Part shown: piece by piece, positions 2,827-58,021 of the stretch
How positions within the stretch are numbered: the stretch's first letter is position 1
Layout: each line of letters opens with the position of its first letter
NCBI GenBank assembly: GCA_944389535.1
Contig: CALXMS010000003.1
Span: 39,419-103,418, forward strand
Length of the DNA stretch: 64,000 nucleotides
Direction: 5' to 3'
Origin: an uncultured Alphaproteobacteria bacterium
GTDB lineage: Bacteria; Pseudomonadota; Alphaproteobacteria; Rs-D84
The notes under the pieces: generated by a model
Told to the model about the DNA's origin: nothing
The model's database searches: none
What the model saw: the letters and a program-made list of their open reading frames with translations, nothing else
Program-made: the position numbers and the translations under genes

Positions 2827-3732
2827 TTACCGACAAACTTCTTGAAGTATCTTACCGCGTTTTATTTCTAATCGCTTTTTATACGTTTCATAAACGGGGT
2901 TGTCTTCAAAAACTAAGCAATCACAATTTACAGGTAAATAAGCCAGTGTCTTAATATTATTCTTTGAACAATCAAGTATTTCTACTTTTTGGGGACAAAA
3001 CTTTAAATCTTTTAAAAGATTCCACCCGCAATCAAATTCCTCTAATTCCAGAGGCGCACCTTTTAAAGACCGTAATTTATTATTGCTACAATAATAATTG
3101 TTTACTTTTTGTGGTCCCCCGATCAAATTTGATAATCTATTATCTTCACAATAAAAAAAGTTTTTTACCTCTATTGGGGCGCCTTTTAAAGTACGCAATT
3201 TATTAAATGAACAATTATACACATTCACCTTTTCTGGTCCGCCTTCTAGAGTTATTAAATCATTAAAGGAACAATAAAAAATTTCCGTAAATTTTGGTGC
3301 CCCATTTAAAGTCTTCAAATGATTCCAGCAACAAACGTATTTTATTGTTTTAACGGGTCCACCAACCAAAGATTCTAATTGATTATGGTTACACAAAAAT
3401 TCTTCCACCTCTTTCGGCGCAAAGTTTAAAGACGACAAGGCATTATGGGAACAATCATATACTTCCGCTTTACTAGGTCCCCCTTCAAGACTAGTTAATA
3501 AATTTGAATCGCAATAGAAACGTTTTACCTCTTTTGGCGCACCTTTTAATGAAGTTAATTGATTATATGAACAATTAAAATAACTTAAACAAACACACGT
3601 CGAAAGATCTGGTAATTCAGTCAAACCCATTTTGGCAAGATTTATGCCTTCTTTTATAACAAAATTCTTTGGCAACTCAAATACATCATACTTTTTTCCG
3701 TCTTGATAAAAGTACCTGCTTGGTTCACCCAT
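2827..3732 (-). CDS. Leucine-rich-repeat protein with about 11 tandem 20-residue repeats. No signal peptide, so a possible eukaryote-like effector.
   Basis: The 301-aa ORF has a repeat unit xCsxNxLxSLxGaPxxVxxF, for example YCDSNLLTSLEGGPSKAEVY, DCSHNALSSLNFAPKEVEEF and YCSFNDLITLEGGPEKVNVY. The period is 20 aa (60 nt). The N-terminus is not hydrophobic. Confidence 0.7.
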   Translation of the reverse strand: MGEPSRYFYQDGKKYDVFELPKNFVIKEGINLAKMGLTELPDLSTCVCLSYFNCSYNQLTSLKGAPKEVKRFYCDSNLLTSLEGGPSKAEVYDCSHNALSSLNFAPKEVEEFLCNHNQLESLVGGPVKTIKYVCCWNHLKTLNGAPKFTEIFYCSFNDLITLEGGPEKVNVYNCSFNKLRTLKGAPIEVKNFFYCEDNRLSNLIGGPQKVNNYYCSNNKLRSLKGAPLELEEFDCGWNLLKDLKFCPQKVEILDCSKNNIKTLAYLPVNCDCLVFEDNPVYETYKKRLEIKRGKILQEVCR

Positions 3733-5356: not shown

Positions 5357-6082
5357 ATGACCAAGACGCCGAAATTTTCAAAGCAAATTGAGGAAAATCG
5401 TGAAACGATATCTAAACTGTTATCTGGTGCTGATACAGTCAAACGTTTGAACAATTTTAATTGGTTACGGCACGAAATATCATATACAGAACCAAGAATT
5501 TTATTTTACGTCCCCAGCAAAGAACAACAACCATATTTGGACTATAATTCTATGAAAAATATTGGTGACGCATATGATTATATATTACAAAACCCGAAAA
5601 AAAACATAGATATATATGAAATTTGTAAAATACACAGCACAATATGTACGGGAACGCATATTCAGGGGGGATTATTTAGAACCAGCCCAAAAATAATAGA
5701 AATACAAGTTAATGGCCATCGATTACATGCACCAGACGAAACGCAAATTTTATCGAAGATGACCGAAATTATTTTCAAATTAAACGACCGTAATGTCTGC
5801 GTATTAAAACGCGCATTTCGTATTCATTACGATTTAATTATGTTGCAACCGTTTGATGACTTTAATAAGCGCACCGCACGACTTATTATGAATTGGGTAT
5901 TAATACAGAACGGATACAGACCTATAGTATTTAATCAACCAACGGATAAGCAAAAATATAAAGAAGCAATTACTGCTTGTGCAAATGGTCGACCTAAAGA
6001 ATATATATACTATATGTCATATTGTATGGCTAGAACGCAAAAACAAATCATATCTTTATTGAATAACTCTAAAATGTTATAG
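5357..6082 (+). CDS. Fic/Doc-fold protein with a non-canonical active-site motif, QPFDDFNKRTAR in place of HPFx(D/E)GNGRxxR
   Basis: The layout is Fic-like: HIQGGLFRTSP...VNGHRLHAPDETQILSKMTEII...AFRIHYDLIMLQPFDDFNKRTARLIMNWVLIQNGYRP. This aligns residue-for-residue with the canonical Fic core, which ends in ...IHPFxDGNGRxxRLLxNLxLxxxGYPP. The catalytic His is replaced by Gln, and GNG becomes FNK, which resembles the Doc NKR motif. Confidence 0.7.
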   Translation: MTKTPKFSKQIEENRETISKLLSGADTVKRLNNFNWLRHEISYTEPRILFYVPSKEQQPYLDYNSMKNIGDAYDYILQNPKKNIDIYEICKIHSTICTGTHIQGGLFRTSPKIIEIQVNGHRLHAPDETQILSKMTEIIFKLNDRNVCVLKRAFRIHYDLIMLQPFDDFNKRTARLIMNWVLIQNGYRPIVFNQPTDKQKYKEAITACANGRPKEYIYYMSYCMARTQKQIISLLNNSKML

Positions 6083-6090
6083 GTTTTTAC

Positions 6091-7017
6091 ATGGCTGATG
6101 AAATCATAAATCTTCCAAATCACGGTCGCGAGACATATGCAGTTTATTACGGGGATCGATTCGTATTGAAACGCCCTTTGCCGTACTTTAACGATGCCTC
6201 AAAAAAAGCATGGTTAAAAAAACAACATGACACAAAGCAAAAAATTGATGACATTCGAAAAGTCGGGAACCCTGTTTATAATATCCCAGAAATGATATTT
6301 ATAAATGATGAAGAATACCAGGTTCTAGAAGAACGCGCTTTGGGTGAACCGCTTACAAGACAACTTTACGACAATCTATCTAAACGTCAGCAATTTGAAA
6401 TCATAAATAGTTTAGGCAGTTTTCTTGTTGATATGAACGAACTGAAACCTATTGGACAAATTCAGAAATACAAAATTGCAAACGACATAAAGTTTTCTCG
6501 TTTAGACAGATTTATAGAAACCAAAATGTCTAATTGGTTCACAAAAAGCGAAGTGGTACAAATGGCCAAAGTTCGTGATGAGATAGGCTCTTTCGAATAC
6601 GAAACAAGACTTGCTTGGTCGCACGGCGATATAAATGCAGGCAACGTATTATATGATGTCGGTAACAATAAATTATCTTTTATAGATTTTGCTGAAACGG
6701 GTTATAAATATATTTATCGCGATATTTTTGCCCCGCTACAAGTAGAATTAGATATATATAAGCGAGTTTATGAAACATATTATCAATTACACAATAAAAA
6801 TTTATATGTGATGCCCAGCATAAAAAATGAAAACCTACGTGAAATTATGAAATATAGAATTTTAGCAGTCGTATTACGTCGCATAATAAAGGCATCCGAC
6901 GACCTACGCCGCAATCCTGCGTCACCAAAAAGTGAGGCAAATAATCTAGAAAAAATATTTTTCATTCGTCGTCAAATGCAAAAATTTGAAATCATAGAAA
7001 AAATGTTTTCAAAATAA
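6091..7017 (+). CDS. Protein with an aminoglycoside-phosphotransferase or protein-kinase-like fold
   Basis: It carries the Brenner-type catalytic motif SHGDINAGNVLYD and the metal-binding IDFAETG (DFG-like) motif. A Lys-containing strand, VLKRPLP, sits in the N-lobe. The gene starts 9 nt after the stop of the Fic-like gene, so the two are probably co-transcribed. Confidence 0.65.
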   Translation: MADEIINLPNHGRETYAVYYGDRFVLKRPLPYFNDASKKAWLKKQHDTKQKIDDIRKVGNPVYNIPEMIFINDEEYQVLEERALGEPLTRQLYDNLSKRQQFEIINSLGSFLVDMNELKPIGQIQKYKIANDIKFSRLDRFIETKMSNWFTKSEVVQMAKVRDEIGSFEYETRLAWSHGDINAGNVLYDVGNNKLSFIDFAETGYKYIYRDIFAPLQVELDIYKRVYETYYQLHNKNLYVMPSIKNENLREIMKYRILAVVLRRIIKASDDLRRNPASPKSEANNLEKIFFIRRQMQKFEIIEKMFSK

Positions 7018-11596: not shown

Positions 11597-13438
11597 ATGC
11601 GATCATTTTACCAGATTTTTACTGCAGTTATATTTATCACGACGGCGACGTCAAATACACTTGCCGCCAAAGATCAAAGCAAACATGAAAAATGTTATGA
11701 CATAAATTATAAAAAATCTAATCCAGATAAATGCGCATCTTTTTTTAACGTTACGACAGCCCCATTGCTATCAGGCGCAACCGTTTTCGGCGGCGCGTTA
11801 GCCTTAATAAGTATCGCAAACGCAACAAATAACGCTTCAAGTAACCCAACAAAGTATTACCAACCCACTTTACCGACATATAATATGGTTGGCGGTGATG
11901 TAGACTCAATCAAACTGGCTGCAGCAACAAGTACACCAGAATACACGCAAAACATAAATCAATATAATGACATTCGCCTTGGTTATTCAATTGCAAGGGG
12001 TTATACAGGCCTAGGAACAAAGATAGCCATCCTAGACTCAGGTCCTAATACATTTCATGGTTCAGCAGTCGAAGCAATCGCTTCTGGTCCGATAGCAAAA
12101 AATGCAGTTGTTGAATCATATGATATTTTATACAAAAACGAGTTTCTTTCATACGACGAAATTGGAGATGTTATAGCAACAGCTTCTGATGCAGATATAT
12201 TTAACGCCAGTTGGTCCGTATCAATGCAAGCAAATAAACTTAGTTCTCGTAACCAATTAATAAAACTGACCGGTGAAAATTTTGTAAACCAAATATCTGC
12301 AGCGGCACAAAGAGGAGCTATATTTGTATGGGCCGCAGGTAATGACTATGGGGCTCAAAGCAGCGCATTATCTGCCCTTCCGATTGTTATGCCAGAACTA
12401 AACGGTCACTTTGTAAATGTCGTGGCATGGGACAGTGAAACTGGGGCATTAGCGGAATATAGTAACGCTTGTGGTATTACTAAGAACTGGTGTATAACCG
12501 CACCAGGAACAAATATAAATACTGAAAATAATACCATTGTCAGCGGTACAAGTTTTGCTGCGCCGATAGTATCTGCTGCTATCGCAGTAATACGAGAAGC
12601 TTTTCCTTATATGTCTTCTCAAGAAATCACAAGCCTTTTGTTTGAAACGGCTCGTGACTTAGGAGAACCAGGAATAGATGACATTTACGGTCATGGCATG
12701 CTAGATTTAGAACGCGCAACCCGCCCTGTTGGTGCCCCTCTTGTACCAATGGAAGATGGAACGATGCAAATACTACAACCAGCGCGAGTTTCAGGAACGC
12801 TTGCACATAATATATTAAGTGCATCCCCAAAATTGGCATACTTTGATAAATATGGTCGCGCCTTTAACGCGGATTTAAAAGACCTTATTTCAATTAAAAA
12901 TCCGGGAATAGGATTTAAAAGACTGCGCCAAAAATCTGATATAGAAATTATACGTATAAATAACTTTGAAGCAGGTTTAAAAAACAGTGATCTAATAGTT
13001 GGCGACGGTTTCTTAAATAAGCACGGATCAGATTGGTTAGGATTCATCGGAACAAACAATGAGTTTTCTATAGGTACATTCAATTTATTTCAACGGGCGC
13101 GACTATCTTTTGGTACCCCAAAAATTGATGAACAATCAATGATACAATCTTTTTCAAATATATATGCATTATCCTTTGATATAGGTGCTAAAATTACCGA
13201 CTGGTCTTTTGGAATATCAATTCCAGACACAATTATTAATGGAAGCATGGAAATGAGATTACCAATAGGACGGGCAAACGATGGGGCTATAATATACAAA
13301 GATTATAATATAAAAATGAACGGCAGACCACCTATTGAATATTCAATATCATATAAGTCTATTACTGCTAGTTTTGTTGATAATCCGTACGGTACAGATG
13401 AATTCTTTATTCTGACGCGTGGAAAACTTTATTTCTAA
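11597..13438 (+). CDS. Secreted subtilisin-like (S8) serine protease whose C-terminal domain may be an autotransporter-type beta-barrel
   Basis: There is a signal peptide. The catalytic Asp is in AILDSG, the His in HGS, and the Ser in GTSFAAPIVSAAIAV. The ~230-aa C-terminal region is rich in alternating hydrophobic and aromatic residues and ends ...RGKLYF, an OMP-like terminal aromatic. Confidence 0.75.
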   Translation: MRSFYQIFTAVIFITTATSNTLAAKDQSKHEKCYDINYKKSNPDKCASFFNVTTAPLLSGATVFGGALALISIANATNNASSNPTKYYQPTLPTYNMVGGDVDSIKLAAATSTPEYTQNINQYNDIRLGYSIARGYTGLGTKIAILDSGPNTFHGSAVEAIASGPIAKNAVVESYDILYKNEFLSYDEIGDVIATASDADIFNASWSVSMQANKLSSRNQLIKLTGENFVNQISAAAQRGAIFVWAAGNDYGAQSSALSALPIVMPELNGHFVNVVAWDSETGALAEYSNACGITKNWCITAPGTNINTENNTIVSGTSFAAPIVSAAIAVIREAFPYMSSQEITSLLFETARDLGEPGIDDIYGHGMLDLERATRPVGAPLVPMEDGTMQILQPARVSGTLAHNILSASPKLAYFDKYGRAFNADLKDLISIKNPGIGFKRLRQKSDIEIIRINNFEAGLKNSDLIVGDGFLNKHGSDWLGFIGTNNEFSIGTFNLFQRARLSFGTPKIDEQSMIQSFSNIYALSFDIGAKITDWSFGISIPDTIINGSMEMRLPIGRANDGAIIYKDYNIKMNGRPPIEYSISYKSITASFVDNPYGTDEFFILTRGKLYF

Positions 13439-15026: not shown

Positions 15027-16508
15027 TTAAAATTGCGCGTTTACACCGACACGAATCCCCATAGACTTATAGAATGATTCTATTTCGCCACTCATTGAAC
15101 ATACCCAACCAGGACATTCTGTTTCAAGATTCTTAATATTGATTGCGATCGGATCTCCTGGCGTCCCTTCAACTAAGCCCAGCATTTTATCCTCATCGCC
15201 ACCCCACTTATTTGAATTAAGAATCGTGTTATATAAATCCGTATAATACGTACTATTCAAATATGTTTTTGCGTCGGCACCGCTAACCGAATAATAATCA
15301 TACGTTAAGCCAATTGACAAAGCAACAGAATTTGTTATCGCGGTCGTCCAATTCGCACCCATACCTATATGAAATGCTCCGAACATCCCTGTACTATCTT
15401 CAACGCTCTTCGGATGTGCCCAGTCAAAGCGATAGGGTTGGTCGCCAACAGATTCATAACCAGGCAACCCCAGCTCTACACGACCATTAACTGCATTGTT
15501 CTGATTTATGATATAATCCATATCCAACGCAATGTATGGTCCAGCCCACGTTGTTTCATACGAATGGCTGACACCAGGCTGTTGGTAATAATACGTACTG
15601 GCTGTATCTATGCTATCTATATTTGAACTTGTAATTGGTTGCATCTCATCTGTTATGTTATCACGCCAAATTATCTGTTGCGTACCATCAGAGTAATTTA
15701 TTATTATCGCAGGATCGCACTGTATCTCTCCGTTTACATCGAAACATGCGGCCGTATCAACAGATAAACCATAATTTTTTTCTGTTTCTAGTTTATATTT
15801 CAAGTACCGATAACCTATTGATGGCGTAATTTTGACGTTTCCCCATTTAAAGAAATCTGTTAAACCAAAACCTACGTTAAAGCCCATCATATTACCACCC
15901 TGACTGGTACCAATAGACATTGCGTGCCCAATTTGATCACCTATCTTGCTATTATTATCATCGGCATTTACCCACGTAGTTTGTAAAAAACCACCGTTCG
16001 TAATATCATCGTCATACATGGCAGATTCACCCCACTGCATACCGTACTTCAATCCTGCGTCAACCTGCATTGTTGTATTACCGACATTAAAATAATATCC
16101 CCCAGTAACGTCTAAAACGTTCCAGCCGATATTATCATAACTTAAAATACTACCAGATTGGTTCATTTCCATCTGCCATTGCGAAAATTCGTGGGTTATA
16201 CCTGCGTCTACCCAGAAACCCGATTTTTTTGAGTTCGATGTAGACGCCTGTGAAGACGTTGCAGCTGTGGTTCTTTGCGCCGTGGTCGTAGCTGCAGCGT
16301 TATTATATCTGGACGCATATGATGGCGTCGAATAGTAGTTGCTTGAATAATATGGACTGGTATAGCCTGTTTGACGCTGTGCATAAGTTTGTGACGAGTA
16401 AGACGTTTGCGGAGATTGATAAGAGCCACCAGTATAATATGTCCCTGCCGCATTCGCCATCACAGGTGTAATCGCAGTTAATAAAAACAGAGATATTTTT
16501 TTCATCAT
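15027..16508 (-). CDS. Outer-membrane beta-barrel protein with an N-terminal Tyr/Ser/Thr/Gln-rich low-complexity region
   Basis: The signal peptide is MMKKISLFLLTAITPVMANA. A ~90-aa stretch of Y/S/T/Q low complexity follows (GTYYTGGSYQSPQTSYSSQTY...). The rest is aromatic-rich with alternating strands and ends ...RVGVNAQF, an OMP C-terminal Phe. Confidence 0.55.
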   Translation of the reverse strand: MMKKISLFLLTAITPVMANAAGTYYTGGSYQSPQTSYSSQTYAQRQTGYTSPYYSSNYYSTPSYASRYNNAAATTTAQRTTAATSSQASTSNSKKSGFWVDAGITHEFSQWQMEMNQSGSILSYDNIGWNVLDVTGGYYFNVGNTTMQVDAGLKYGMQWGESAMYDDDITNGGFLQTTWVNADDNNSKIGDQIGHAMSIGTSQGGNMMGFNVGFGLTDFFKWGNVKITPSIGYRYLKYKLETEKNYGLSVDTAACFDVNGEIQCDPAIIINYSDGTQQIIWRDNITDEMQPITSSNIDSIDTASTYYYQQPGVSHSYETTWAGPYIALDMDYIINQNNAVNGRVELGLPGYESVGDQPYRFDWAHPKSVEDSTGMFGAFHIGMGANWTTAITNSVALSIGLTYDYYSVSGADAKTYLNSTYYTDLYNTILNSNKWGGDEDKMLGLVEGTPGDPIAINIKNLETECPGWVCSMSGEIESFYKSMGIRVGVNAQF

Positions 16509-45367: not shown

Positions 45368-47881
45368 TTACATAACTATATCTTCACAGACCTCTTCTGA
45401 CACGTTAGTCGTACAACTAGTATTGCGATTATTATGAAACCAGCTACTGCTGCCTGTTGTTTTGCAATCTTGAGATGTGGTTTGTGTACAAATATGACAA
45501 GTTCTTGTATCACGACTAAATATTGCTCTAACGGTTTTCGTCATACCGGCATTATCCATACTAGAACCGCCAAGGTAACCACTGTTTGTAAATGTAACAC
45601 CATCTGTTTGCAATACACCTGCCCCACCCTTAGCCAAGTCTTCCGTTGTCAAACCAGAACCAACGTCATAACTAATTGCGTATGGTGGTGTTAACGGCGT
45701 AGACGCAGTAATAGCCCCACCACCAGCGCCACCGTTTTCGGCAATTTTCTGACACATATATTGCGCCAAATCTGTAGAAGCATTCTTTGTTGCTTCAGCA
45801 ATTTCATAATTAAGCTTCGTATTATAGTTATCCTGAGCTTTACGCAACGCAGCCACTGCTATTTGCATTTTTACCTGATTTAATAAATTCGGGAAGCGAC
45901 CAACAGTCGATGCATTTGCCTCACCTGTAATTTGCTCCAAACTGCGCCCACTTACACAATATTGAATTTCAGGGTCGCTTTCTATCATTTCTATTGTGCG
46001 ATTTATTGTACCAGCAATATTATTCAGCTCTTCTTCTATAGAAGAAATTATACCGTCATAATTAGCAACACCTACGTTATTTTCTTTTACTTTCGCAAGG
46101 TATTCTTCAATGCCTATTTCACCCGGTTCCAAAGTAACCGTGTTACCGCTGCCGTCTTCCATTTTAGTCTGACCGCTGGCATCTCCCATCTTGATACTAC
46201 CGAAAGATATCATACCCGTAACGCGATATGTTGTACCATCTTTCTGAGAACGTAAAGACCCCGTACCGATCGTATCATCAGCTGCGAATCTATTACAATC
46301 TGTGGTACTGCCGCAAACCTCTGCCATCTTTTTATCAACGATATTCTGGCACTGTTCCATCATTGCATTATCAATATTCAGATATAATCCCATCAACATA
46401 CTATCTAAATCGTCCATGGAAAAATTAGGGTTATTTGCTTTACATACAACCAAACTATCAATCGGACATATGTCATGAATATAGTTATAATCCATCCCTA
46501 TACAATTTTCAAAGTTAGGACCACAACGAGTATCTGCAGTAAAGCAATCTTTTACTTCTTGGGTACACGCATCAACGCGCATTGCCGCAAGCTTATCTTC
46601 AACGTACCCCCAAATTAAAGGTTCCATTCTTTCACAAGGGTCTATTTCTACCTTACAAAAACTACGCGCCATTTCAGGTCTAGATAAGCAAGCATCCATC
46701 GTTGCAACGCCTTTACCCGCAATATCGTCACGACACGCAGTCTGAATACAGTCAGAAATCGTCGTTAAACAAGATTGACGGAACTTAGATTCTGCCTGTA
46801 TTTCTGCAACCTTTATTGTTGGTGCCGCCTCACGCAGAAAGTTCGGCCAGACCAAATCACGTACAGCAACACACTGATCTAAAACATTTTCACATATTGG
46901 ACGCTTTGTATTTAATATGTTCATCGTAGACGTAGTAATGTCATAAGTATCAACAGTTTCAACTGTCGTCCCGGCAGTACTTGTTGCGGTGTTATTCTGC
47001 ATATTTTCCATCGCAATTGTCGCAACGCAATTTTCCCAATCCTCGCCACAGGCATCATCGGTCTGCATACACTTCTTAAATTCTACCATGCACTGTCCAA
47101 GGTCATACTTATTTGCACTTTCAAAACTTTCTTGTAACGCTGCACGTACTTCAGATTCTGCTGCGGCAAGTTCGTTTTCAGCATTATCACGCTGTTGAGA
47201 TAAAGAATTTTTATACCCCAAACAATCTGATGTTATCTGACGAGAATAAAGCTGCTGTAAAAATACAATATCTCCAGAACAAGATTCTGGAACCTGATTC
47301 AAACATAAATTATTAGCCGCGTTATACAATTCGCTGCCGATCATATCTGCCATATCCGCCACAGTACTTTGTAACTCTGCTGAATCATCTTCATAAATAC
47401 TGTTATTATTAAATATTGCCAATAAGTCTGCACGCTTTTGAGCTTTCTGCTTTTCTTCTGTTAACTGCCCCGATGCCAAAATATTACCATCAGCGTCATA
47501 TTGACGAGTACCAGTAAAAACTATATCTGCATTAGCGCCAGCTTTAACACGCTCAACCTCTTCTGTACGAAGACGATTCGCTTCGTCCAGTATAGACTGA
47601 ATAGACGCCATTTCTTGATTATATTCTATTATATTATCACTGCATGTGCATGCACCACCGCTGGCATTATCAGTAATACAAAACTGATCCATGCAACCAA
47701 AATACGCATCGTAACACGCCTGATCATATAAACCAGTTGCTTCAATTTTTGTTCTTACTGTCGTTCCCTGTTGAATCGCGGATTGACGAGAATTCTTACT
47801 GGTAGTAAGAGCATAAGAGTTTGTAACAACCCCAACCACCAAATAAGTAAATAACGAAACAAACATAATTTTATTTCTCAT
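45368..47881 (-). CDS. Large secreted cysteine-rich protein, member 2 of the paralogous family
   Basis: The signal peptide is MRNKIMFVSLFTYLVVGVVTNSYA. The SD GGGGGA lies 8 nt upstream, and the ORF is open to 47899. The family signature reads CYDAYFGCMDQFCITDNASGGACTCSDN. It shares CENVLDQCVAVRD and CGxxFENC blocks with member 3. The C-terminus reads ...VCEDIVM. Confidence 0.8.
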   Translation of the reverse strand: MRNKIMFVSLFTYLVVGVVTNSYALTTSKNSRQSAIQQGTTVRTKIEATGLYDQACYDAYFGCMDQFCITDNASGGACTCSDNIIEYNQEMASIQSILDEANRLRTEEVERVKAGANADIVFTGTRQYDADGNILASGQLTEEKQKAQKRADLLAIFNNNSIYEDDSAELQSTVADMADMIGSELYNAANNLCLNQVPESCSGDIVFLQQLYSRQITSDCLGYKNSLSQQRDNAENELAAAESEVRAALQESFESANKYDLGQCMVEFKKCMQTDDACGEDWENCVATIAMENMQNNTATSTAGTTVETVDTYDITTSTMNILNTKRPICENVLDQCVAVRDLVWPNFLREAAPTIKVAEIQAESKFRQSCLTTISDCIQTACRDDIAGKGVATMDACLSRPEMARSFCKVEIDPCERMEPLIWGYVEDKLAAMRVDACTQEVKDCFTADTRCGPNFENCIGMDYNYIHDICPIDSLVVCKANNPNFSMDDLDSMLMGLYLNIDNAMMEQCQNIVDKKMAEVCGSTTDCNRFAADDTIGTGSLRSQKDGTTYRVTGMISFGSIKMGDASGQTKMEDGSGNTVTLEPGEIGIEEYLAKVKENNVGVANYDGIISSIEEELNNIAGTINRTIEMIESDPEIQYCVSGRSLEQITGEANASTVGRFPNLLNQVKMQIAVAALRKAQDNYNTKLNYEIAEATKNASTDLAQYMCQKIAENGGAGGGAITASTPLTPPYAISYDVGSGLTTEDLAKGGAGVLQTDGVTFTNSGYLGGSSMDNAGMTKTVRAIFSRDTRTCHICTQTTSQDCKTTGSSSWFHNNRNTSCTTNVSEEVCEDIVM

Positions 47882-47923
47882 CACTTTATCCCCCGCCATG
47901 CCATAAAAGACGGCATATAAACC

Positions 47924-53107: not shown

Positions 53108-53815
53108 ATGAAAAACGCCTTTACTATTTCAATCTGTTGTTTCAGTTTAATATCGGCAGCGTCAGCCGCAGCTATTCCATGGTGGGAACAAGCAACTGTA
53201 TGTAAATTAGATACAACAAAATGCTATCCTTCAATGGGTACAGGTTATGCCAGCGAACTTTGGGATAGTGTTACTGGATGCTGGGGTATGAAATATATCT
53301 GCCCAGAAGCATTATTATCTGACGAGTATATGCCTGTTCCTATGGGGCGTAAAGAAATATCTGCCGGGACAAATATAAATAAAGATTTTAATACAGATAT
53401 ATTAAACGGCGATTGCTTTGGGGTACGAAAAACCACAAACAATGGCGCTATGGCTTCTATAAACGGAGAATATATACCAGTATGGTGTAACGGTATTTTA
53501 AATGACGTTGACGAATATCTAGAAAATGGTGAAATAACATACGGGGCTCAACCAACATGTCAAGATTTGGCAGATTATGGATATGTGGCGACCGTAAATG
53601 GTCAATGTTACGGGAAATACTATGATCCATATAATTATTATATTGAATGTGATGGCTCATCCATTACACCAAGTCGCATAATAATATTAAACGGTGCAGA
53701 TTATATGGCATCATCTGACAGTTCACCATCTGATGAAAGTGCGGCATCAAAGTTATTTGATTCAATGCAATCTATATCTGAATCACAGCGTAAAATATAC
53801 TTTACAAACGATTAA
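53108..53815 (+). CDS. Small secreted cysteine-rich protein (235 aa) that shares one motif with the large Cys-rich family
   Basis: The signal peptide is MKNAFTISICCFSLISAASAAA. There are 14 Cys. TCQDLADYGY resembles (N/T)CQDIAD(Y/E)VWDEF of members 1 and 4. It lies immediately downstream of member 4. Confidence 0.6.
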   Translation: MKNAFTISICCFSLISAASAAAIPWWEQATVCKLDTTKCYPSMGTGYASELWDSVTGCWGMKYICPEALLSDEYMPVPMGRKEISAGTNINKDFNTDILNGDCFGVRKTTNNGAMASINGEYIPVWCNGILNDVDEYLENGEITYGAQPTCQDLADYGYVATVNGQCYGKYYDPYNYYIECDGSSITPSRIIILNGADYMASSDSSPSDESAASKLFDSMQSISESQRKIYFTND

Positions 53816-53843
53816 AAAAATCCCGTTTTTACGGGATTTTTTT
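53814..53843 (+). terminator. Rho-independent bidirectional terminator between the small Cys-rich gene and the Pmp-like gene
   Basis: The stem atcccgt/acgggat has a tttt loop. An A-run and a T-run flank it. Confidence 0.7.
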
Positions 53844-53855
53844 ATGCATTATTTT

Positions 53856-56135
53856 TTAAAACTTATATCTAAATTTTAACATTCCGGTTTGTGATGTATA
53901 ATCTTTGTGTATGTCTAAATCATAATTTACCGAAAACACCCAAGCATTATACATTGCGCTTAAACCTACTCCGACTTCACCGCCAAATCTGGATAAATTT
54001 TCACTTGTTACTTTATACGAAGCCAGTCCTGGAACCGTTACTATTGCAACTGCTTCGTCGGATATAAAATCATAAGTGGCAGCGGCACGTATTTCTGGGC
54101 GAAGTTTTAACCGTCCTTCTGCTTCGATCACAAAACCATATTTTAAACCAGCCACTCCTGTAAGATAGTTTGTATTCGTATCAGAAATATCAGCTATACC
54201 ATTATTATATGCGTCTTGATTTATATGTAAATAACGTATAGCAACTTCTGGTATTATACCAGACGATAATTCATAACCTGTAACCATCTGACCGCCAAAA
54301 GAATCAACGTCATATTCAGGATTAATTGTAAGGTTCTCGAATGCAGTTGCCATTTCCGTATAATCAGCCATAGTATATGTTAAAGTAGCACCAACATACC
54401 ATTTTGAAGGTTTATACTGACCGTACAAGAACAAACTATTACTGGATATTTCTGTATCTCGAGTATTTGTCTCTACTTCTGTTTCGTTATACGCATACCC
54501 TATACCAATTGTATATTTATCTTTGATCAAAGTATCAAAACCAACAGATATACCATTCGTATCACCTGTAAATTTATCGGAATACTTTGTTCTATTCATC
54601 AAGCCTTGGGCCCATACTCCATAATCTATCTTTGGCCAATCACCGCCACTGCGTCCGATACCAGAAATACTGCTCATACGATCTGACGTCACAGATAAAA
54701 CCTGATTATTTACAGCCGTAGCAACTGAATGTACAATAGGTTTGTCTTCATTTCTAAGTTTAGCAGATTCTTGTTCTACATAATCTATATCACCCTCTTT
54801 CAAAGCATTTTGAGCAATTAATGCCGCTGAATTAACGAAAGAATCAGAACTATTTGCTAATCCGACTAATACCAACGCCGCATCAGAAGAAATATTTGTA
54901 TTATTTGAAATATCTGAAACGTCTTTGGTTTCAACAACAATATTCGTGCCGTCTATAGATACATTATATATCAAATCTGCATATTTTATATTATTGATAT
55001 CAATTGCCGCCCCGAAATCGTACTTACCTACGGCCCCCAGTGTTAAATCTAGCACTGCATTTTCACCGATACTGATTTCATCAATATCTATGGCTGCAAA
55101 ACTAGATGGATTTAAAATCGAAGCTGCTAACGTACCATCCAGGACTAATTTTCCTTGTTCCAAAACTGTGGAACCAATATTTAAAACGGCATTTTCGGCA
55201 ATGGTAAGCGTTCCTGTTCCTTTAATTCCACCGTCCATTATGGTCATACCATCAGCAATTATTATATTACCAGAATTATAAATATCGTTTGCGGATTCTT
55301 CGGCAACGTTTCCAGAAAACGTATTATTTCCGTTAAACGTTATCTTTCCTTGATTATAAATTGCACCGCCTAAACTTCCGGCTTTATTTCCTGTAAACGA
55401 TGAATCAGATATCGATTCGATAACACCAGAATTTGAAATTGCACCGCCCTGCTTTACTTCACCCATCAACGCATAGTTTGAATCAAACGTTGCATTGCTA
55501 ATCAAACTTATAAGACCATATTCATCATTACTTATCGCACCACCATCACTAGCTATATTAGTTCTAAATGCAACAGTTTCTATGCTGTTAACTGTCCCAG
55601 AATTAAGCAGCACACCACCTTTATTAACACCGGCAGAATTTTCAATAAACGAAGCATTGGCAATTTTACTAATGTTTCCCCCACCCGTACTACCTGTTGA
55701 ATTAGAATTGTAAATTACCCCTCCTGCTTCCCCTTGGTTGCGTTGAAACAAAGCGTGTGAAATTTCGCTTATTTTTCCGGAATCTGCATTATAAATGACA
55801 CCGCCCTCCATGGCAGTATTTGACCCGAAGACAGAGTTACCGCTTAAACTTGTAATGGAAACTGTTCCTTCATTATAAATTACCCCGCCCATATTTCCGG
55901 TATTGTTTTTAAACGACGCAGGACCGTTAACATTAAGCGTTCCACTGACTGATGCAACAGCACCATTTAAGTCCTCGTTTTGATATTTTGTATAACTTGC
56001 ATCTTTATCTATGTTATAAGTCTCACCTTCCGCAACAGTTATTTGTTCTGATGCGTTTGCCGCAGTCCATATAGACATAATAAATAAAAAAGGGAAAATT
56101 TTTAATGAATAAAAAGAAAATTCACTGGCAGACAT
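53856..56135 (-). CDS. Autotransporter with polymorphic-membrane-protein (Pmp)-like GGA(I/L/V) and FxxN passenger repeats and a C-terminal beta-barrel
   Basis: The protein is 759 aa with a signal peptide. There are many GGVIYN, GGAISN and GGAIYN units alternating with FKNN, FQRN, FIEN, FRTN, FDSN and FTGN. The ~270-aa C-terminus has alternating amphipathic strands and ends ...MLKFRYKF. Confidence 0.8.
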   Translation of the reverse strand: MSASEFSFYSLKIFPFLFIMSIWTAANASEQITVAEGETYNIDKDASYTKYQNEDLNGAVASVSGTLNVNGPASFKNNTGNMGGVIYNEGTVSITSLSGNSVFGSNTAMEGGVIYNADSGKISEISHALFQRNQGEAGGVIYNSNSTGSTGGGNISKIANASFIENSAGVNKGGVLLNSGTVNSIETVAFRTNIASDGGAISNDEYGLISLISNATFDSNYALMGEVKQGGAISNSGVIESISDSSFTGNKAGSLGGAIYNQGKITFNGNNTFSGNVAEESANDIYNSGNIIIADGMTIMDGGIKGTGTLTIAENAVLNIGSTVLEQGKLVLDGTLAASILNPSSFAAIDIDEISIGENAVLDLTLGAVGKYDFGAAIDINNIKYADLIYNVSIDGTNIVVETKDVSDISNNTNISSDAALVLVGLANSSDSFVNSAALIAQNALKEGDIDYVEQESAKLRNEDKPIVHSVATAVNNQVLSVTSDRMSSISGIGRSGGDWPKIDYGVWAQGLMNRTKYSDKFTGDTNGISVGFDTLIKDKYTIGIGYAYNETEVETNTRDTEISSNSLFLYGQYKPSKWYVGATLTYTMADYTEMATAFENLTINPEYDVDSFGGQMVTGYELSSGIIPEVAIRYLHINQDAYNNGIADISDTNTNYLTGVAGLKYGFVIEAEGRLKLRPEIRAAATYDFISDEAVAIVTVPGLASYKVTSENLSRFGGEVGVGLSAMYNAWVFSVNYDLDIHKDYTSQTGMLKFRYKF

Positions 56136-56290
56136 ACAATCTCCTTATTAATAGCCCCACTAAACTTAAGCGTATCATAGTAAGAAGAACTTTCAATAAA
56201 AATAGTTATTTTTTCTTAGTTGCTTATATTTAAATGCCGTAAAAAATTAATTGCAAAAAGGTAAATAGCAATATATAATGTGGCGCACAT

Positions 56291-56364
56291 TGGGGCATAG
56301 TTTAATGGTAGAACTCCGGACTCTGACTCCGTCAGTGTTGGTTCGAATCCAGCTGCCCCAACCA
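56291..56364 (+). tRNA. tRNA-Gln (anticodon CUG)
   Basis: The sequence is TGGGGCATAGTTTAATGGTAGAACTCCGGACTCTGACTCCGTCAGTGTTGGTTCGAATCCAGCTGCCCCAACCA. The U1:A72 pair is typical of bacterial tRNA-Gln. The anticodon loop is C-U-C-U-G-A-C. Confidence 0.85.
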
Positions 56365-56537
56365 AGAATTCAACCCGCCTTGTGCGGGTTTAATTTATTG
56401 GTCCGAAATGATAGGATATAAGTCTCATATCTTGATTTTTTTGCTGATTTATGGTATAATTAAGTCCAACAGATTTAGGTGAACTTTGGTTCGCCTTTTT
56501 TATTTTCCCCACATTTTATCAACATAAGGTTTTTAAT

Positions 56538-57446
56538 ATGCCACTTAAAAGCACTAAGCTTCATCGTGCCAAGCGATTAAAAAATGACGAATTCTATACC
56601 CAATACCAAGATATTGAATCTGAATGCTCTAATTACTTAGAGCATTTTTTTAATAAAGTCATATATTGCAATTGCGATACCGCTGATAGTAATTTCGTTA
56701 AATACTTCAAAAATCTTAAAAGCCAAGGATTAATAAAAGACATATTATGGTCTGGTGGGTTAAATGGGCTGGACTTCCGCAGCAATGCATCCATAGAACT
56801 ATTAAAGCAGTCGGACATAGTTGTCACCAATCCGCCGTTTTCTTTATTTATTCCGTATATCAACCAGTTGGTTAAATACGACAAGCAATTTTTAATTATG
56901 GGCAACAGAAATGCCGTCAGTTACAGGGAAGTTTTTGAATTAATCAAAGACAATAAACTCTGGATTGGCACTATACCATTTGGGGCAAGTATGTTGTTTG
57001 ATGTGCCAGAACCTGAAAAACTATTAATACAAGGCAAAGAAAACATAACCTATGCCATTAAAGACGGAATTATAAAGGCAAGAGTTCCAGCGACTTGGTT
57101 TACAAACATCCATCATAAAAATATGCCAAAAGAAATCCCATTGGTTAAACAATATACTGGTAATGAAGCCGCCTACCCAAAATACGATAACTTTGATGCA
57201 ATTGAAGTTAAATGCAAAAGAAATATTCCATACGACTATATGGGTATAATGGGTGTTCCTGTAACCTTTATAGACAGATATAACCCACAGCAGTTTGAAA
57301 TATTGGGTATGGACAAAGATTTTACTTATGACAGCAAAAGTGTCCGCATAGGCAGTAAAAACCTTTATACACGGATATTTATAAGGCGAAAATGCAATAT
57401 GTCAGAAGCATCCAATGACAACTGTCTATTAAAAACCGCCGTTTAA
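56538..57446 (+). CDS. Solitary N6-adenine DNA methyltransferase candidate, EcoRI-methylase-like family, with an NPPF motif IV
   Basis: The N-terminus reads ...KNDEFYTQYQDIESE. The catalytic motif reads DIVVTNPPFS. No restriction-endonuclease partner with cytoplasmic features lies adjacent. Confidence 0.55.
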   Translation: MPLKSTKLHRAKRLKNDEFYTQYQDIESECSNYLEHFFNKVIYCNCDTADSNFVKYFKNLKSQGLIKDILWSGGLNGLDFRSNASIELLKQSDIVVTNPPFSLFIPYINQLVKYDKQFLIMGNRNAVSYREVFELIKDNKLWIGTIPFGASMLFDVPEPEKLLIQGKENITYAIKDGIIKARVPATWFTNIHHKNMPKEIPLVKQYTGNEAAYPKYDNFDAIEVKCKRNIPYDYMGIMGVPVTFIDRYNPQQFEILGMDKDFTYDSKSVRIGSKNLYTRIFIRRKCNMSEASNDNCLLKTAV

Positions 57447-58021
57447 TATAAATTCCACAGGTAATTAAACTGATTGGTAAATACTTTATTGGAAGATTGT
57501 TGAAAGAAAGTGCAGTTTTCTGCATTTGATTTACTGGCACTTTCTGTCCAATTATAAGAACCATTTTCTATATTCTTGCCGTCAAATATTGCGAATTTGT
57601 GGTGCATAATCTTATGCTTTACATTTGTTTTGACGGCTATTCCAGCATCAATCAGTTTAGATACCAGCGAATATTTACCCTTAGATTGTAATCTGTCTGT
57701 AATCACCCTGATTTTAGCCCCACGGTCTTTGGCAGTAATTAAAGCATCATACTTCCACTCAATATCGCCATATTCTGTAATTTGATTATCACCGATATAT
57801 ACATATTCTGTTTCAAAAGTCGCCTCAGCAGAGCCAAATAACCCGACAAAAGATTGCGACCCCATAATTCTGTTATTGCTATGCTTACCGTATAAAGAAT
57901 CTCGTTCTGTAAAGGTTTTAACAGCAACCCCTGAATAATCCGCCAGGTCTTTAATTTCAAACCCAAAGCAATAAATGGGCAAGCATAAGACGAACAGAAA
58001 AGCCAGTATTAGTTTTTTCAT
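57443..58021 (-). CDS. Secreted phospholipase-D-family (Nuc-like) endonuclease
   Basis: The signal peptide is MKKLILAFLFVLCLPIYCFG. The single HKD motif reads HHKFAIFDGKNIENGSYNWTESA. The size (about 170 aa mature) matches the Nuc subfamily. Confidence 0.7.
   Translation of the reverse strand: MKKLILAFLFVLCLPIYCFGFEIKDLADYSGVAVKTFTERDSLYGKHSNNRIMGSQSFVGLFGSAEATFETEYVYIGDNQITEYGDIEWKYDALITAKDRGAKIRVITDRLQSKGKYSLVSKLIDAGIAVKTNVKHKIMHHKFAIFDGKNIENGSYNWTESASKSNAENCTFFQQSSNKVFTNQFNYLWNLY

Follow-up and report, generated by a model that had tools for sequence, protein, structure and literature searches.

The chlamydial polymorphic membrane proteins (Pmps), such as PmpA to PmpI of C. trachomatis and Pmp6, Pmp20, and Pmp21 of C. 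pneumoniae, are among the described proteins whose design is closest to that of the autotransporter presented here. In both, a signal peptide is followed by an N-terminal beta-helix whose stacked rungs carry paired FxxN and GGA(I/L/V) motifs (PF02415), then by a beta-helical stretch free of motifs, and finally by a PF03797 barrel that ends in phenylalanine, and in both families the length of the protein varies with the number of rungs. Adhesion by chlamydial Pmp passengers with these motifs has been shown experimentally (PMC2997323), and Pmps are reported to assemble into homo- and hetero-oligomers (PMC8326573). Chlamydial proteins make up less than one third of PF02415, and the remaining carriers, which include archaea, Phycisphaerae, and eukaryotes, are mostly uncharacterised (PMC11166332, PMC10715098). 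The view of the first-pass annotation that, beyond Chlamydiae, adhesins of host-associated bacteria are the typical case is an over-generalisation. The repeat chemistry is common to the non-chlamydial proteins of Methanobrevibacter and Phycisphaerae, the Pmp-like proteins of Trichomonas, and a chain of PDB entry 7w5z, but these are anchored by a transmembrane helix or Ig-like domains, whereas the protein described here is anchored by an autotransporter barrel.

This protein is carried by uncultured gut Alphaproteobacteria of the order Rs-D84 (Candidatus Enterousia and relatives), a lineage widespread in humans, birds, and ruminants. With regard to cell contact, published genome analyses of Rs-D84 reportedly mention nothing beyond "hypothetical membrane-bound proteins", and a literature search retrieved no paper linking Rs-D84 with autotransporters. 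The genomes are smaller than 1 Mbp and lack biosynthesis and respiration, and the organisms have been proposed to depend on a partner (PMC12306168). This independent proposal agrees with the host-interacting lifestyle suggested in the first-pass annotation, except that the partner may not be an animal host.

The autotransporter gene lies on the minus strand of the window, the 64-kb stretch of DNA analysed here, with the following features.

56141 to 56146, minus strand: Shine-Dalgarno sequence AAGGAG, 5 nt 5' of the ATG (direct sequence reading)
53856 to 56135, minus strand: complete autotransporter gene, 759 aa plus stop (list of open reading frames)
56052 to 56135, minus strand: Sec-type signal peptide, aa 1 to 28 (MSASEFSFYSLKIFPFLFIMSIWTAANA, followed by SEQ; sequence inspection)
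55968 to 56051, minus strand: tip or cap at the N-terminal end of the beta-helix, aa 29 to 56 (predicted strands, pLDDT >80)
55275 to 55967, minus strand: PMP-repeat region of eight rungs, aa 57 to 287 (motifs, register, Pfam Chlam_PMP, pLDDT mostly >90)
54921 to 55274, minus strand: predicted motif-free C-terminal part of the beta-helix, aa 288 to 405 (DSSP strands at aa 290 to 403, pLDDT 84 to 97)
54738 to 54920, minus strand: predicted helical junction of four short helices, aa 406 to 466 (AF2 helices at aa 406 to 413, 417 to 427, 432 to 446, and 450 to 460)
54675 to 54737, minus strand: predicted long alpha-helix, aa 467 to 487 (AF2 helix, then a low-confidence loop at aa 490 to 501)
53859 to 54629, minus strand: type Va beta-barrel translocator, aa 503 to 759, ending in RYKF (Pfam PF03797 and Foldseek)
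53813 to 53844, no strand assigned: bidirectional hairpin resembling an intrinsic terminator, in the gap that separates the autotransporter gene from the convergent gene for a 235-aa protein

The encoded protein is 100% identical to a protein present in NCBI/ENA (P0001), and two independent metagenome contigs carry the same gene. The hairpin, whose 14-bp stem lies between runs of A and T, was detected on both strands. A search upstream of the gene retrieved no convincing sigma-70 promoter. A search for DNA typical of phase variation, such as tandem repeats or homopolymer tracts, found only a trivial 9-bp AT-rich repeat. The signal peptide was assigned by inspection from a hydrophobic core at aa 13 to 25 and the residues A-N-A preceding S at aa 26 to 29; its pLDDT in the AlphaFold model is below 50 throughout. 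Because the protein contains no cysteine, a lipobox is impossible.

The passenger contains seven strictly alternating pairs in which FxxN is followed by GG[AV][IL] (aa 75/83, 103/111, 130/138, 163/173, 190/198, 217/230, and 247/256), as well as extra FxxN motifs at aa 267 and 273. Shuffled passengers held on average 0.48 GG motifs and 1.34 FxxN motifs, and the observed counts were reached in 0 of 5000 shuffles. The motifs are in register across eight rungs of 25 to 35 aa with the form x-G-x-I..I....FxxN.A...GG(A/V)I(Y)N, of which the eighth is degenerate, with GGAIYN replaced by ANDIYN. In this last rung N283-D284 is invariant in the alignment, a pair that may or may not correspond to the invariant Rung-0 Asp by which the Asn ladder of Pmps is seeded. 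The loops from FxxN to GG are minimal (4 residues in four of the seven rungs, 9 at most). Pfam Chlam_PMP (PF02415) recognizes the region with 27.8 bits (cutoff 20.6), whereas the NCBIfam model POMP_repeat stays under its cutoff (10.4 versus 15). The PMP-type alternation put forward in the first-pass annotation is present. Of the seven GG motifs only three are the canonical GGAI, and GGVI or GGVL takes its place in the remaining four.

The C-terminal domain matches Pfam Autotransporter (PF03797) at aa 507 to 739 over the full model (positions 1 to 255), with 108.7 bits (cutoff 26) and E = 5e-31. With PF03797 and PF02415 both above their cutoffs, the HMM check proposed in the first-pass annotation turned out positive, and the absence of matches that was to speak against its reading was not what was found. 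The C terminus reads KFRYKF, an aromatic beta-signal for BAM as in type Va translocators, and F759 is invariant in 46 sequences. The full-length AlphaFold model (pLDDT 87.1) consists of a beta-helix, helices, and a barrel, and a Foldseek search of the PDB with it returned type Va autotransporter barrels as all of its top 17 matches, among them EstA (E = 1e-11) and NalP (TM 0.78). The barrel and the preceding helix, both modelled at high confidence, align to NalP (1uyn), EspP (2qom/3slo), EstA (3kvn), BrkA (3qq2), and AIDA-I (4mee) with E values of 1e-11 to 6e-7 and target-normalised TM scores of 0.42 to 0.78, highest for NalP. The translocators of NalP, EspP, and EstA, to which Foldseek aligns the helix region, all have such a helix, and that of aa 467 to 487 may likewise span the barrel pore. 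Sequence identity to these translocators is 13 to 18%, and the passenger is unrelated to their protease, esterase, and AIDA passengers. No Asn-Asn site for cleavage inside the barrel proved to be conserved among family members; NN does occur at aa 474 to 475 of the window protein, but there the family consensus reads QNQ.

Modeled alone, the passenger reaches a pLDDT of 88.4 and a pTM of 0.85, and regular short strands extend over aa 30 to 405 with a pLDDT of about 90, as for a monomeric beta-helical passenger. At the sequence level, phmmer with the single protein gave no match to PDB sequences, and the family profile matched only 7w5z_U2 (a 3634-aa chain, E = 7e-18 to its repeat region) and, marginally, EstA. 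Taken together, the sequence and the predicted model place the protein in a known architecture class, that of an ordinary type Va autotransporter with a short PMP-repeat beta-helix, as had been claimed for the barrel with its terminal Phe.

Scanning reference genomes with the protein alone retrieved no relative; relatives were found by an alignment-based scan. Both Pfam domains are present in all 46 aligned relatives (best PF02415 E = 6e-47), and synteny of the gene extends over 28 species-level genomes. The alphaproteobacterial context is borne out by synteny with MAGs that carry the title Alphaproteobacteria or Candidatus Enterousia, together with a methylase of the N6_N4_Mtase plus RAMA type in the window. 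Family members range from 605 to 1329 aa and from 5 to 25 rungs, and length correlates with motif number (r = 0.96). Mean identity within the family is 60% for the barrel, the most conserved domain, 46% for the repeats, and 26% for the tip (aa 29 to 70); aa 29 to 56 are the least conserved of the folded parts. Conservation in the passenger falls on the motif residues F, N, GGA, and I, which are buried, a pattern given for Pmps as well (PMC10715098). The autotransporter gene is the fastest diverging of its syntenic block, with a median identity of 48% versus 66 to 79% for the others; in 26 of 27 loci its identity is the lowest in the block. Identity between orthologues does not exceed 64%, with saturation at synonymous sites. 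Variation within species is very low (1 to 6 substitutions per 759 aa), on which ground within-species hypervariability was rejected.

The protein differs from chlamydial Pmps in several respects. The Pmp middle domain PF07548 gave no match at E ≤ 1 in the 759-aa protein or in any of the 46 members, and in its place there is a lineage-specific stretch of beta-helix followed by the four-helix junction, the latter with conserved positions A420, L426, N428, L439, Q442, and L445. This module, to which aa 288 to 405 belong, was found in 139 representative clusters among 1.84 billion, all of the same architecture, and by this distribution of sequences appears restricted to the lineage. Furthermore, the protein has 8 rungs versus 9 to 25 in Pmps, lacks cysteines and nearly all long inter-motif loops, carries GGV(I/L) in four of its seven GG motifs, and belongs to an alphaproteobacterial lineage. 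The scanned related loci and assemblies hold 1 to 2 copies per genome, with tandem duplicates in some genomes, versus 9 to 21 for Pmps; a search of the window for further family members or PMP-rich open reading frames found none beyond this one copy. Judged on these features the protein is not a chlamydial Pmp, and "Pmp-like" denotes resemblance rather than membership.

The neighbourhood includes a SurA gene 6 kb from the autotransporter gene, MsbA and other outer membrane protein genes, and a second outer membrane family named after Chlamydiae, Pom (PF17251). Of the two further genes to which the first-pass annotation pointed, the Fic-like gene is confirmed by a Fic match of 47.9 bits, and the leucine-rich repeat protein scores slightly under threshold (25.5 bits versus 27). 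Among the syntenic neighbours of the autotransporter gene is a co-conserved cluster for uncharacterised Cys-rich secreted proteins. Searches for relatives of these neighbours in Pfam, NCBIfam, and the PDB found none, nor was evidence found of a described system that joins them with an autotransporter.

Following the autotransporter paradigm, the protein would pass the inner membrane through Sec by means of its 28-aa signal peptide and would be held unfolded by periplasmic chaperones, for which the nearby SurA gene offers a candidate. BAM would then insert the C-terminal barrel (aa 503 to 759, with RYKF as beta-signal) into the outer membrane, the helix of aa 467 to 487 would fill the pore, and the passenger would be threaded outward C terminus first. 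The junction and the motif-free beta-helix (aa 288 to 466) would be the first to fold and may serve as a template upon which the eight PMP rungs stack, with FxxN and GG(A/V)I of each rung buried and packed against one another. The product would be a Cys-free, rigid rod, about 375 residues in length, that remains attached to the barrel. Its specificity would reside in quickly evolving residues of the surface and in the distal tip, and its reach would depend on the number of rungs.

By analogy with the chlamydial Pmps, such an exported rod probably acts as a type Va surface adhesin that holds Rs-D84 cells on the surface of a host or partner. Since the motifs are structural and buried (PMC10715098), their presence says little on ligand binding. 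Several observations weigh against adhesion: the long variable loops thought to carry the specificity of Pmps are absent here, the sequence hardly varies within species, the closest solved passenger folds belong to the self-associating Ag43 and TibA (weak matches), and most PF02415 proteins outside Chlamydiae are uncharacterised.

The third of these observations leads to a possible though rather unlikely reading, in which the exported passenger mainly self-associates, as do Ag43 and TibA, or forms a dense, protective, antigenically drifting surface coat like rickettsial rOmpB, instead of binding a specific receptor on a partner. In the PDB the passenger is matched best by Ag43 (4kh3, E = 6e-5) and next by further Ag43 entries and TibA, with weak matches to pertactin, Hbp, and Hap, and the oligomers described for Pmps in the source cited above would fit self-association. 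However, the TM scores to Ag43 and TibA are very low (0.12 to 0.30, with 0.13 for Ag43), and therefore only the generic beta-helix is common to them. The 19-residue AIDA-type repeats and L-shaped beta-helix of Ag43, AIDA-I, and TibA are not seen, and Pfam repeats of the AIDA or pertactin type were detected neither in the protein nor in the family. The rickettsial Sca proteins (rOmpA/Sca0) are likewise alphaproteobacterial surface autotransporters of organisms with reduced genomes, and among the NCBIfam full-length models rOmpA alone (NF052635, an equivalog) detects the protein, but it does so in the barrel region only (aa 484 to 759, E = 3e-11) and with 41.1 bits versus a cutoff of 2600, and the passengers have no similarity. 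The combination of fast interspecies divergence and low intraspecies variation fits the drift of an exposed antigen and adaptation to a receptor equally well, whereas a coat encoded by 1 to 2 genes per genome would demand very high protein abundance.

Right-handed beta-helices are also the fold of pectate lyases, alginate lyases, and phage tailspikes, and an organism that must scavenge nutrients could use the passenger as a surface enzyme, such as one of the polysaccharide lyase or hydrolase-like type, instead of a binding protein. This is very improbable: lyases and tailspikes do appear among the weak Foldseek matches (E of 0.09 to 2), but these are no better than generic, no catalytic domain was found with Pfam or NCBIfam, the conserved columns are structural repeat residues instead of a localised putative active site, and long loops that could line a catalytic groove are lacking. 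A true Pmp homologue gained by horizontal transfer from Chlamydiae, which the joint match to Chlam_PMP and an autotransporter barrel and the presence of Pom in the window might suggest, is scarcely credible given the lack of PF07548 in 46 of 46 members, the replacing module with its single architecture, and the spread of PF02415 beyond Chlamydiae; synteny across the order and GC content (36.7% for the gene, 38.0% for the window) also led to the rejection of any recent transfer.

The adhesin reading can be extended, in a form that is itself doubtful, to a principal device of attachment to an obligate partner cell, be it animal epithelium, a gut protist, or another bacterium. In this form the PMP beta-helix sits on a junction and barrel peculiar to the lineage, changes in rung number and the rapid divergence of the tip would track partner specificity, and the device may act together with the Cys-rich neighbours. 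If this were true, the autotransporter and the Cys-rich cluster would form an envelope module paralleling the Pmps and Cys-rich outer membrane complex of Chlamydiae. As a surface adhesin, the protein would be the best candidate attachment protein for a little-known group of gut bacteria with tiny genomes, and it could be used as bait when screening for binding, as a target antigen by which the cells are labelled and sorted, or to indicate host specificity. It also adds one more case of the Pmp repeat as a general building block of beta-helices, here set on a non-chlamydial junction module.

The autotransporter gene is intact, and the sole further ORF inside its interval, a 118-aa antisense frame, is regarded as spurious. 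The gene and its flanks are arranged as follows:

53813-53844: 14-bp bidirectional terminator-like hairpin, between the autotransporter gene and the convergent gene of a 235-aa protein
53856..56135, minus strand: autotransporter ORF, 759 aa, with the Shine-Dalgarno sequence AAGGAG 5 nt ahead of the ATG
56291-58021: tRNA-Gln (56291-56364), then an EcoRI-type adenine methyltransferase gene (56538-57446), overlapped by a PLD/Nuc-like gene (57443-58021)

The methyltransferase and PLD/Nuc-like pair, matched among the fetched loci in the same-species contig L001 only, looks like a small accessory insertion and is possibly a restriction-modification pair. DNA-level repeats or simple-sequence tracts of the phase-variation type are absent at the autotransporter gene. 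The neighborhood recurs on two independent metagenome contigs, and an identical protein is already deposited in NCBI and ENA, with precomputed PF02415 (Chlam_PMP) and PF03797 (Autotransporter) annotations in public collections.

The N-terminus (MSASEFSFYSLKIFPFLFIMSIWTAANA|SEQ) reads as a Sec signal peptide, and the protein contains no cysteine and is thus not a lipoprotein. The passenger presents seven FxxN to GG[AV][IL] pairs in strict alternation (aa 75/83, 103/111, 130/138, 163/173, 190/198, 217/230, and 247/256), followed by two more FxxN motifs at aa 267 and 273. Shuffled passengers contained on average 0.48 GG motifs and 1.34 FxxN motifs, and none of 5,000 attained the observed counts, which bears out the alternating GGAI/GGVI and FxxN passenger described in the first-pass annotation. 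Split behind each GG(A/V)I(Y)N, aa 57 to 287 form eight units in register of 25 to 35 aa each, the eighth being degenerate (ANDIYN in place of GGAIYN), with long loops nearly absent from the rungs. The columns conserved over 46 aligned relatives (F, N, A, GGA, I, and the closing N) form a pattern that, at the sequence level, is consistent with buried motif residues. PF02415 (27.8 bits; cutoff, 20.6) and the full PF03797 model (aa 507 to 739; 108.7 bits; cutoff, 26) both scored over cutoff, and both matched in all 46 relatives (best E = 6e-47 and 4e-37, respectively). In NCBIfam, POMP_repeat stayed under threshold, and the barrel was picked up solely via the C terminus of the rickettsial rOmpA model (41 bits versus a cutoff of 2600). 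We consider this architecture of domains and repeat register to be practically certain.

The full-length AlphaFold2 model, built with the 46-sequence alignment, has a mean pLDDT of 87.1 and a pTM of 0.71 and is divided as follows:

aa 1-28: disordered (signal peptide)
aa 30-405: beta-helix with regular short strands
aa 406-460: four short helices
aa 467-487: single long helix
aa 490-501: loop, low confidence
aa 503-758: barrel with long strands

As we read the DSSP string of the predicted model, the barrel has 12 long strands, and one of its loops also contains a short hairpin. The top 17 Foldseek matches of this model in the PDB are exclusively type Va translocators, among them EstA (E = 1e-11), AaaA, EspP, NalP (target TM, 0.78), Hbp, BrkA, and AIDA-I, so that the earlier assignment of a type Va beta-barrel is upheld by both profile and fold. 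The passenger modeled separately (pLDDT, 88.4; pTM, 0.85) retrieved only weak generic beta-helix matches, every TM being ≤0.34 (Ag43 [E = 6e-5], TibA, pertactin, Hbp, Hap, lyases, and tailspikes). In this it parallels chlamydial Pmp passengers, for which a close solved relative is reported to be absent (PMC10715098). Contrary to that literature, a solved PMP-type repeat structure may exist in PDB 7w5z chain U2, since the one repeat-region match of the family profile among PDB sequences (7w5z_U2; E = 7e-18) covers residues 2749 to 3141 of this 3634-aa "Transmembrane protein, putative."

An exhaustive search of 1.84 billion representative proteins with the middle module (aa 288 to 490, comprising the motif-free beta-helix and the helical junction) retrieved only 139 clusters, 106 of them with an E of ≤1e-10. 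In full-length carriers, the match stops about 270 residues short of the C terminus, and a set of nine among the most distant carriers consists entirely of PF03797 autotransporters, with PMP repeats detectable in four. The small number of clusters and the architecture of the carriers indicate that junction and barrel form a translocation unit private to a small autotransporter family that is restricted to the lineage. Whereas chlamydial Pmps carry the middle domain PF07548 between repeats and barrel, this family has its own junction module at that place, and PF07548 had no match among the 46 relatives even at an E of ≤1. Membership in the chlamydial Pmp family was rejected on this absence, on a copy number that appears low across the related loci and assemblies, unlike that of chlamydial Pmps, and on alphaproteobacterial, vertical inheritance. 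The protein is a genuine autotransporter of type Va that would work like a Pmp; PMP-repeat proteins outside Chlamydiae are already well documented. A second Chlamydiae-named outer membrane family occurs in the window, a 493-aa protein (15027-16508, minus strand) matching PF17251, "Protochlamydia outer membrane protein" (Pom; 40.9 bits; cutoff, 22.4).

Scanned with the alignment, the species representatives of GTDB yielded 79 loci; the title of nearly every one is "uncultured Alphaproteobacteria" or "Candidatus Enterousia," and the samples came from the guts of chicken, yak, sheep, goat, buffalo, roe deer, and human (Hadza); one is a circular genome of 958,618 bp. NCBI places Candidatus Enterousia in the Alphaproteobacteria, and the window also encodes an N6_N4_Mtase+RAMA methylase, which we take to be of the CcrM type typical of this class, in agreement with the alphaproteobacterial context first proposed. 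The best autotransporter orthologues are only 64% identical and the neighboring genes 80 to 94%, which makes the window a distinct species of the Rs-D84 group. Candidatus Enterousia belongs to GTDB order Rs-D84, whose genomes (<1 Mbp) lack respiration and amino acid, nucleotide, and lipid biosynthesis, and for which an obligate symbiont or parasite lifestyle has been proposed (PMC12306168). That paper mentions neither autotransporters nor adhesins, and our literature search found no paper pairing Rs-D84 with "autotransporter." The gene also lies on two contigs titled "Bacteroides fragilis" (L032, CAVGNU010000011.1) and "uncultured Muribaculaceae" (L042, CAZJGX010000028.1), the former holding the entire block that is syntenic in Rs-D84; mis-binning is the most likely explanation for both, in preference to horizontal transfer.

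The block autotransporter/235-aa/828-aa/infA/708-aa/843-aa is syntenic in 28 species-level loci, with the following median identities to the window:

Autotransporter: 48%
235-aa protein: 66%
828-aa protein: 70%
708-aa protein: 79%
843-aa protein: 74%
CBAH: 77%
SurA: 73%

In 26 of 27 loci, the autotransporter shows the lowest conservation of the genes compared, and its identity falls from the barrel (60%) through the helical junction (48%) and repeats (46%) to the tip (aa 29 to 70; 26%). Within species it is nearly invariant (1 to 6 substitutions). Among 137 relatives, length (605 to 1329 aa, the window protein lying at the short end) tracks the number of GG motifs (5 to 25; r = 0.96), each motif adding about 38 aa to some 440 aa that stay constant, and the family is therefore "polymorphic" mainly by rung gain and loss. 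The window has one copy. Some Rs-D84 genomes carry tandem pairs of full-length members (loci L011, 4035-10316; L023, 6252-12750; L044, 279-6681), and six assemblies have a second locus with a 33 to 46% identical paralogue (e.g., L006 and L026, on one contig with 10 kb between them).

The Cys-rich proteins of the block are encoded in the window as follows:

45368-47899, minus strand: 843 aa
47924-50050, minus strand: 708 aa
50560-53046, plus strand: 828 aa
53108-53815, plus strand: 235 aa

The three larger secreted proteins are paralogues (708 versus 843 aa, E = 2e-58; 708 versus 828 aa, E = 6e-14) sharing the signature C-x-[DN]-A-Y-x-x-C-M-D-x-F-C, and the secreted 235-aa protein adjoins them. 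They keep synteny with the autotransporter across 28 genomes, exceed SurA in conservation (708-aa protein, 70 to 88%), and have no relatives in Pfam, NCBIfam, or the PDB; together they make up an uncharacterised envelope protein family. Further away lie these genes:

2827-3732, minus strand: Fic/DOC family protein
5357-6082, plus strand: APH/choline-kinase-like phosphotransferase, next to the Fic/DOC gene
6091-7017, plus strand: LRR_4 match
11597-13438, plus strand: subtilase (Peptidase_S8), 613 aa
26122-28179, plus strand: ClpB homologue, 685 aa

The Fic-like gene noted earlier stands (47.9 bits), and the LRR protein noted with it falls just under threshold (25.5 bits versus 27). The ClpB homologue, aligned to its model from position 148 on and below the equivalog cutoff, appears to be without the N-terminal domain.

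Classical autotransporters are exported by Sec, chaperoned, and inserted by BAM, after which the passenger is translocated C to N, its C-terminal part seeding folding. The window protein would likewise be exported by Sec and chaperoned in the periplasm; the SurA gene lies 6 kb away. BAM would then insert the barrel via the C-terminal RYKF signal, and the passenger would cross C to N, folding from its C-terminal part. Surface proteins, this passenger among them, could be processed by the 613-aa subtilase. Its protease domain resembles those of EprS and fusolisin, both serine peptidases of the autotransporter type, but the searches detected neither an autotransporter nor a barrel domain in it.

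By analogy, we lean toward the exposed rod binding the surface of a host or partner as an adhesin, because chlamydial Pmp fragments with these motifs mediate adhesion (PMC2997323), the organism appears to be partner dependent, and the divergence is of the surface-exposed type. Simple transfer of function is countered by the structural, not ligand-binding, nature of the FxxN/GGA motifs (PMC10715098), by the scarcity of long loops, and by the mostly uncharacterised state of non-chlamydial PF02415 proteins. The main rival, in which the passenger self-associates or forms a protective coat, has the lower probability, and an enzymatic passenger is unlikely. Horizontal transfer from Chlamydiae is most improbable, as the GC content of the gene (36.7%) matches that of the window (38.0%). 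The putative adhesin owes its interest to its context, as the most obvious candidate for surface contact in an uncultured, reduced-genome gut lineage.
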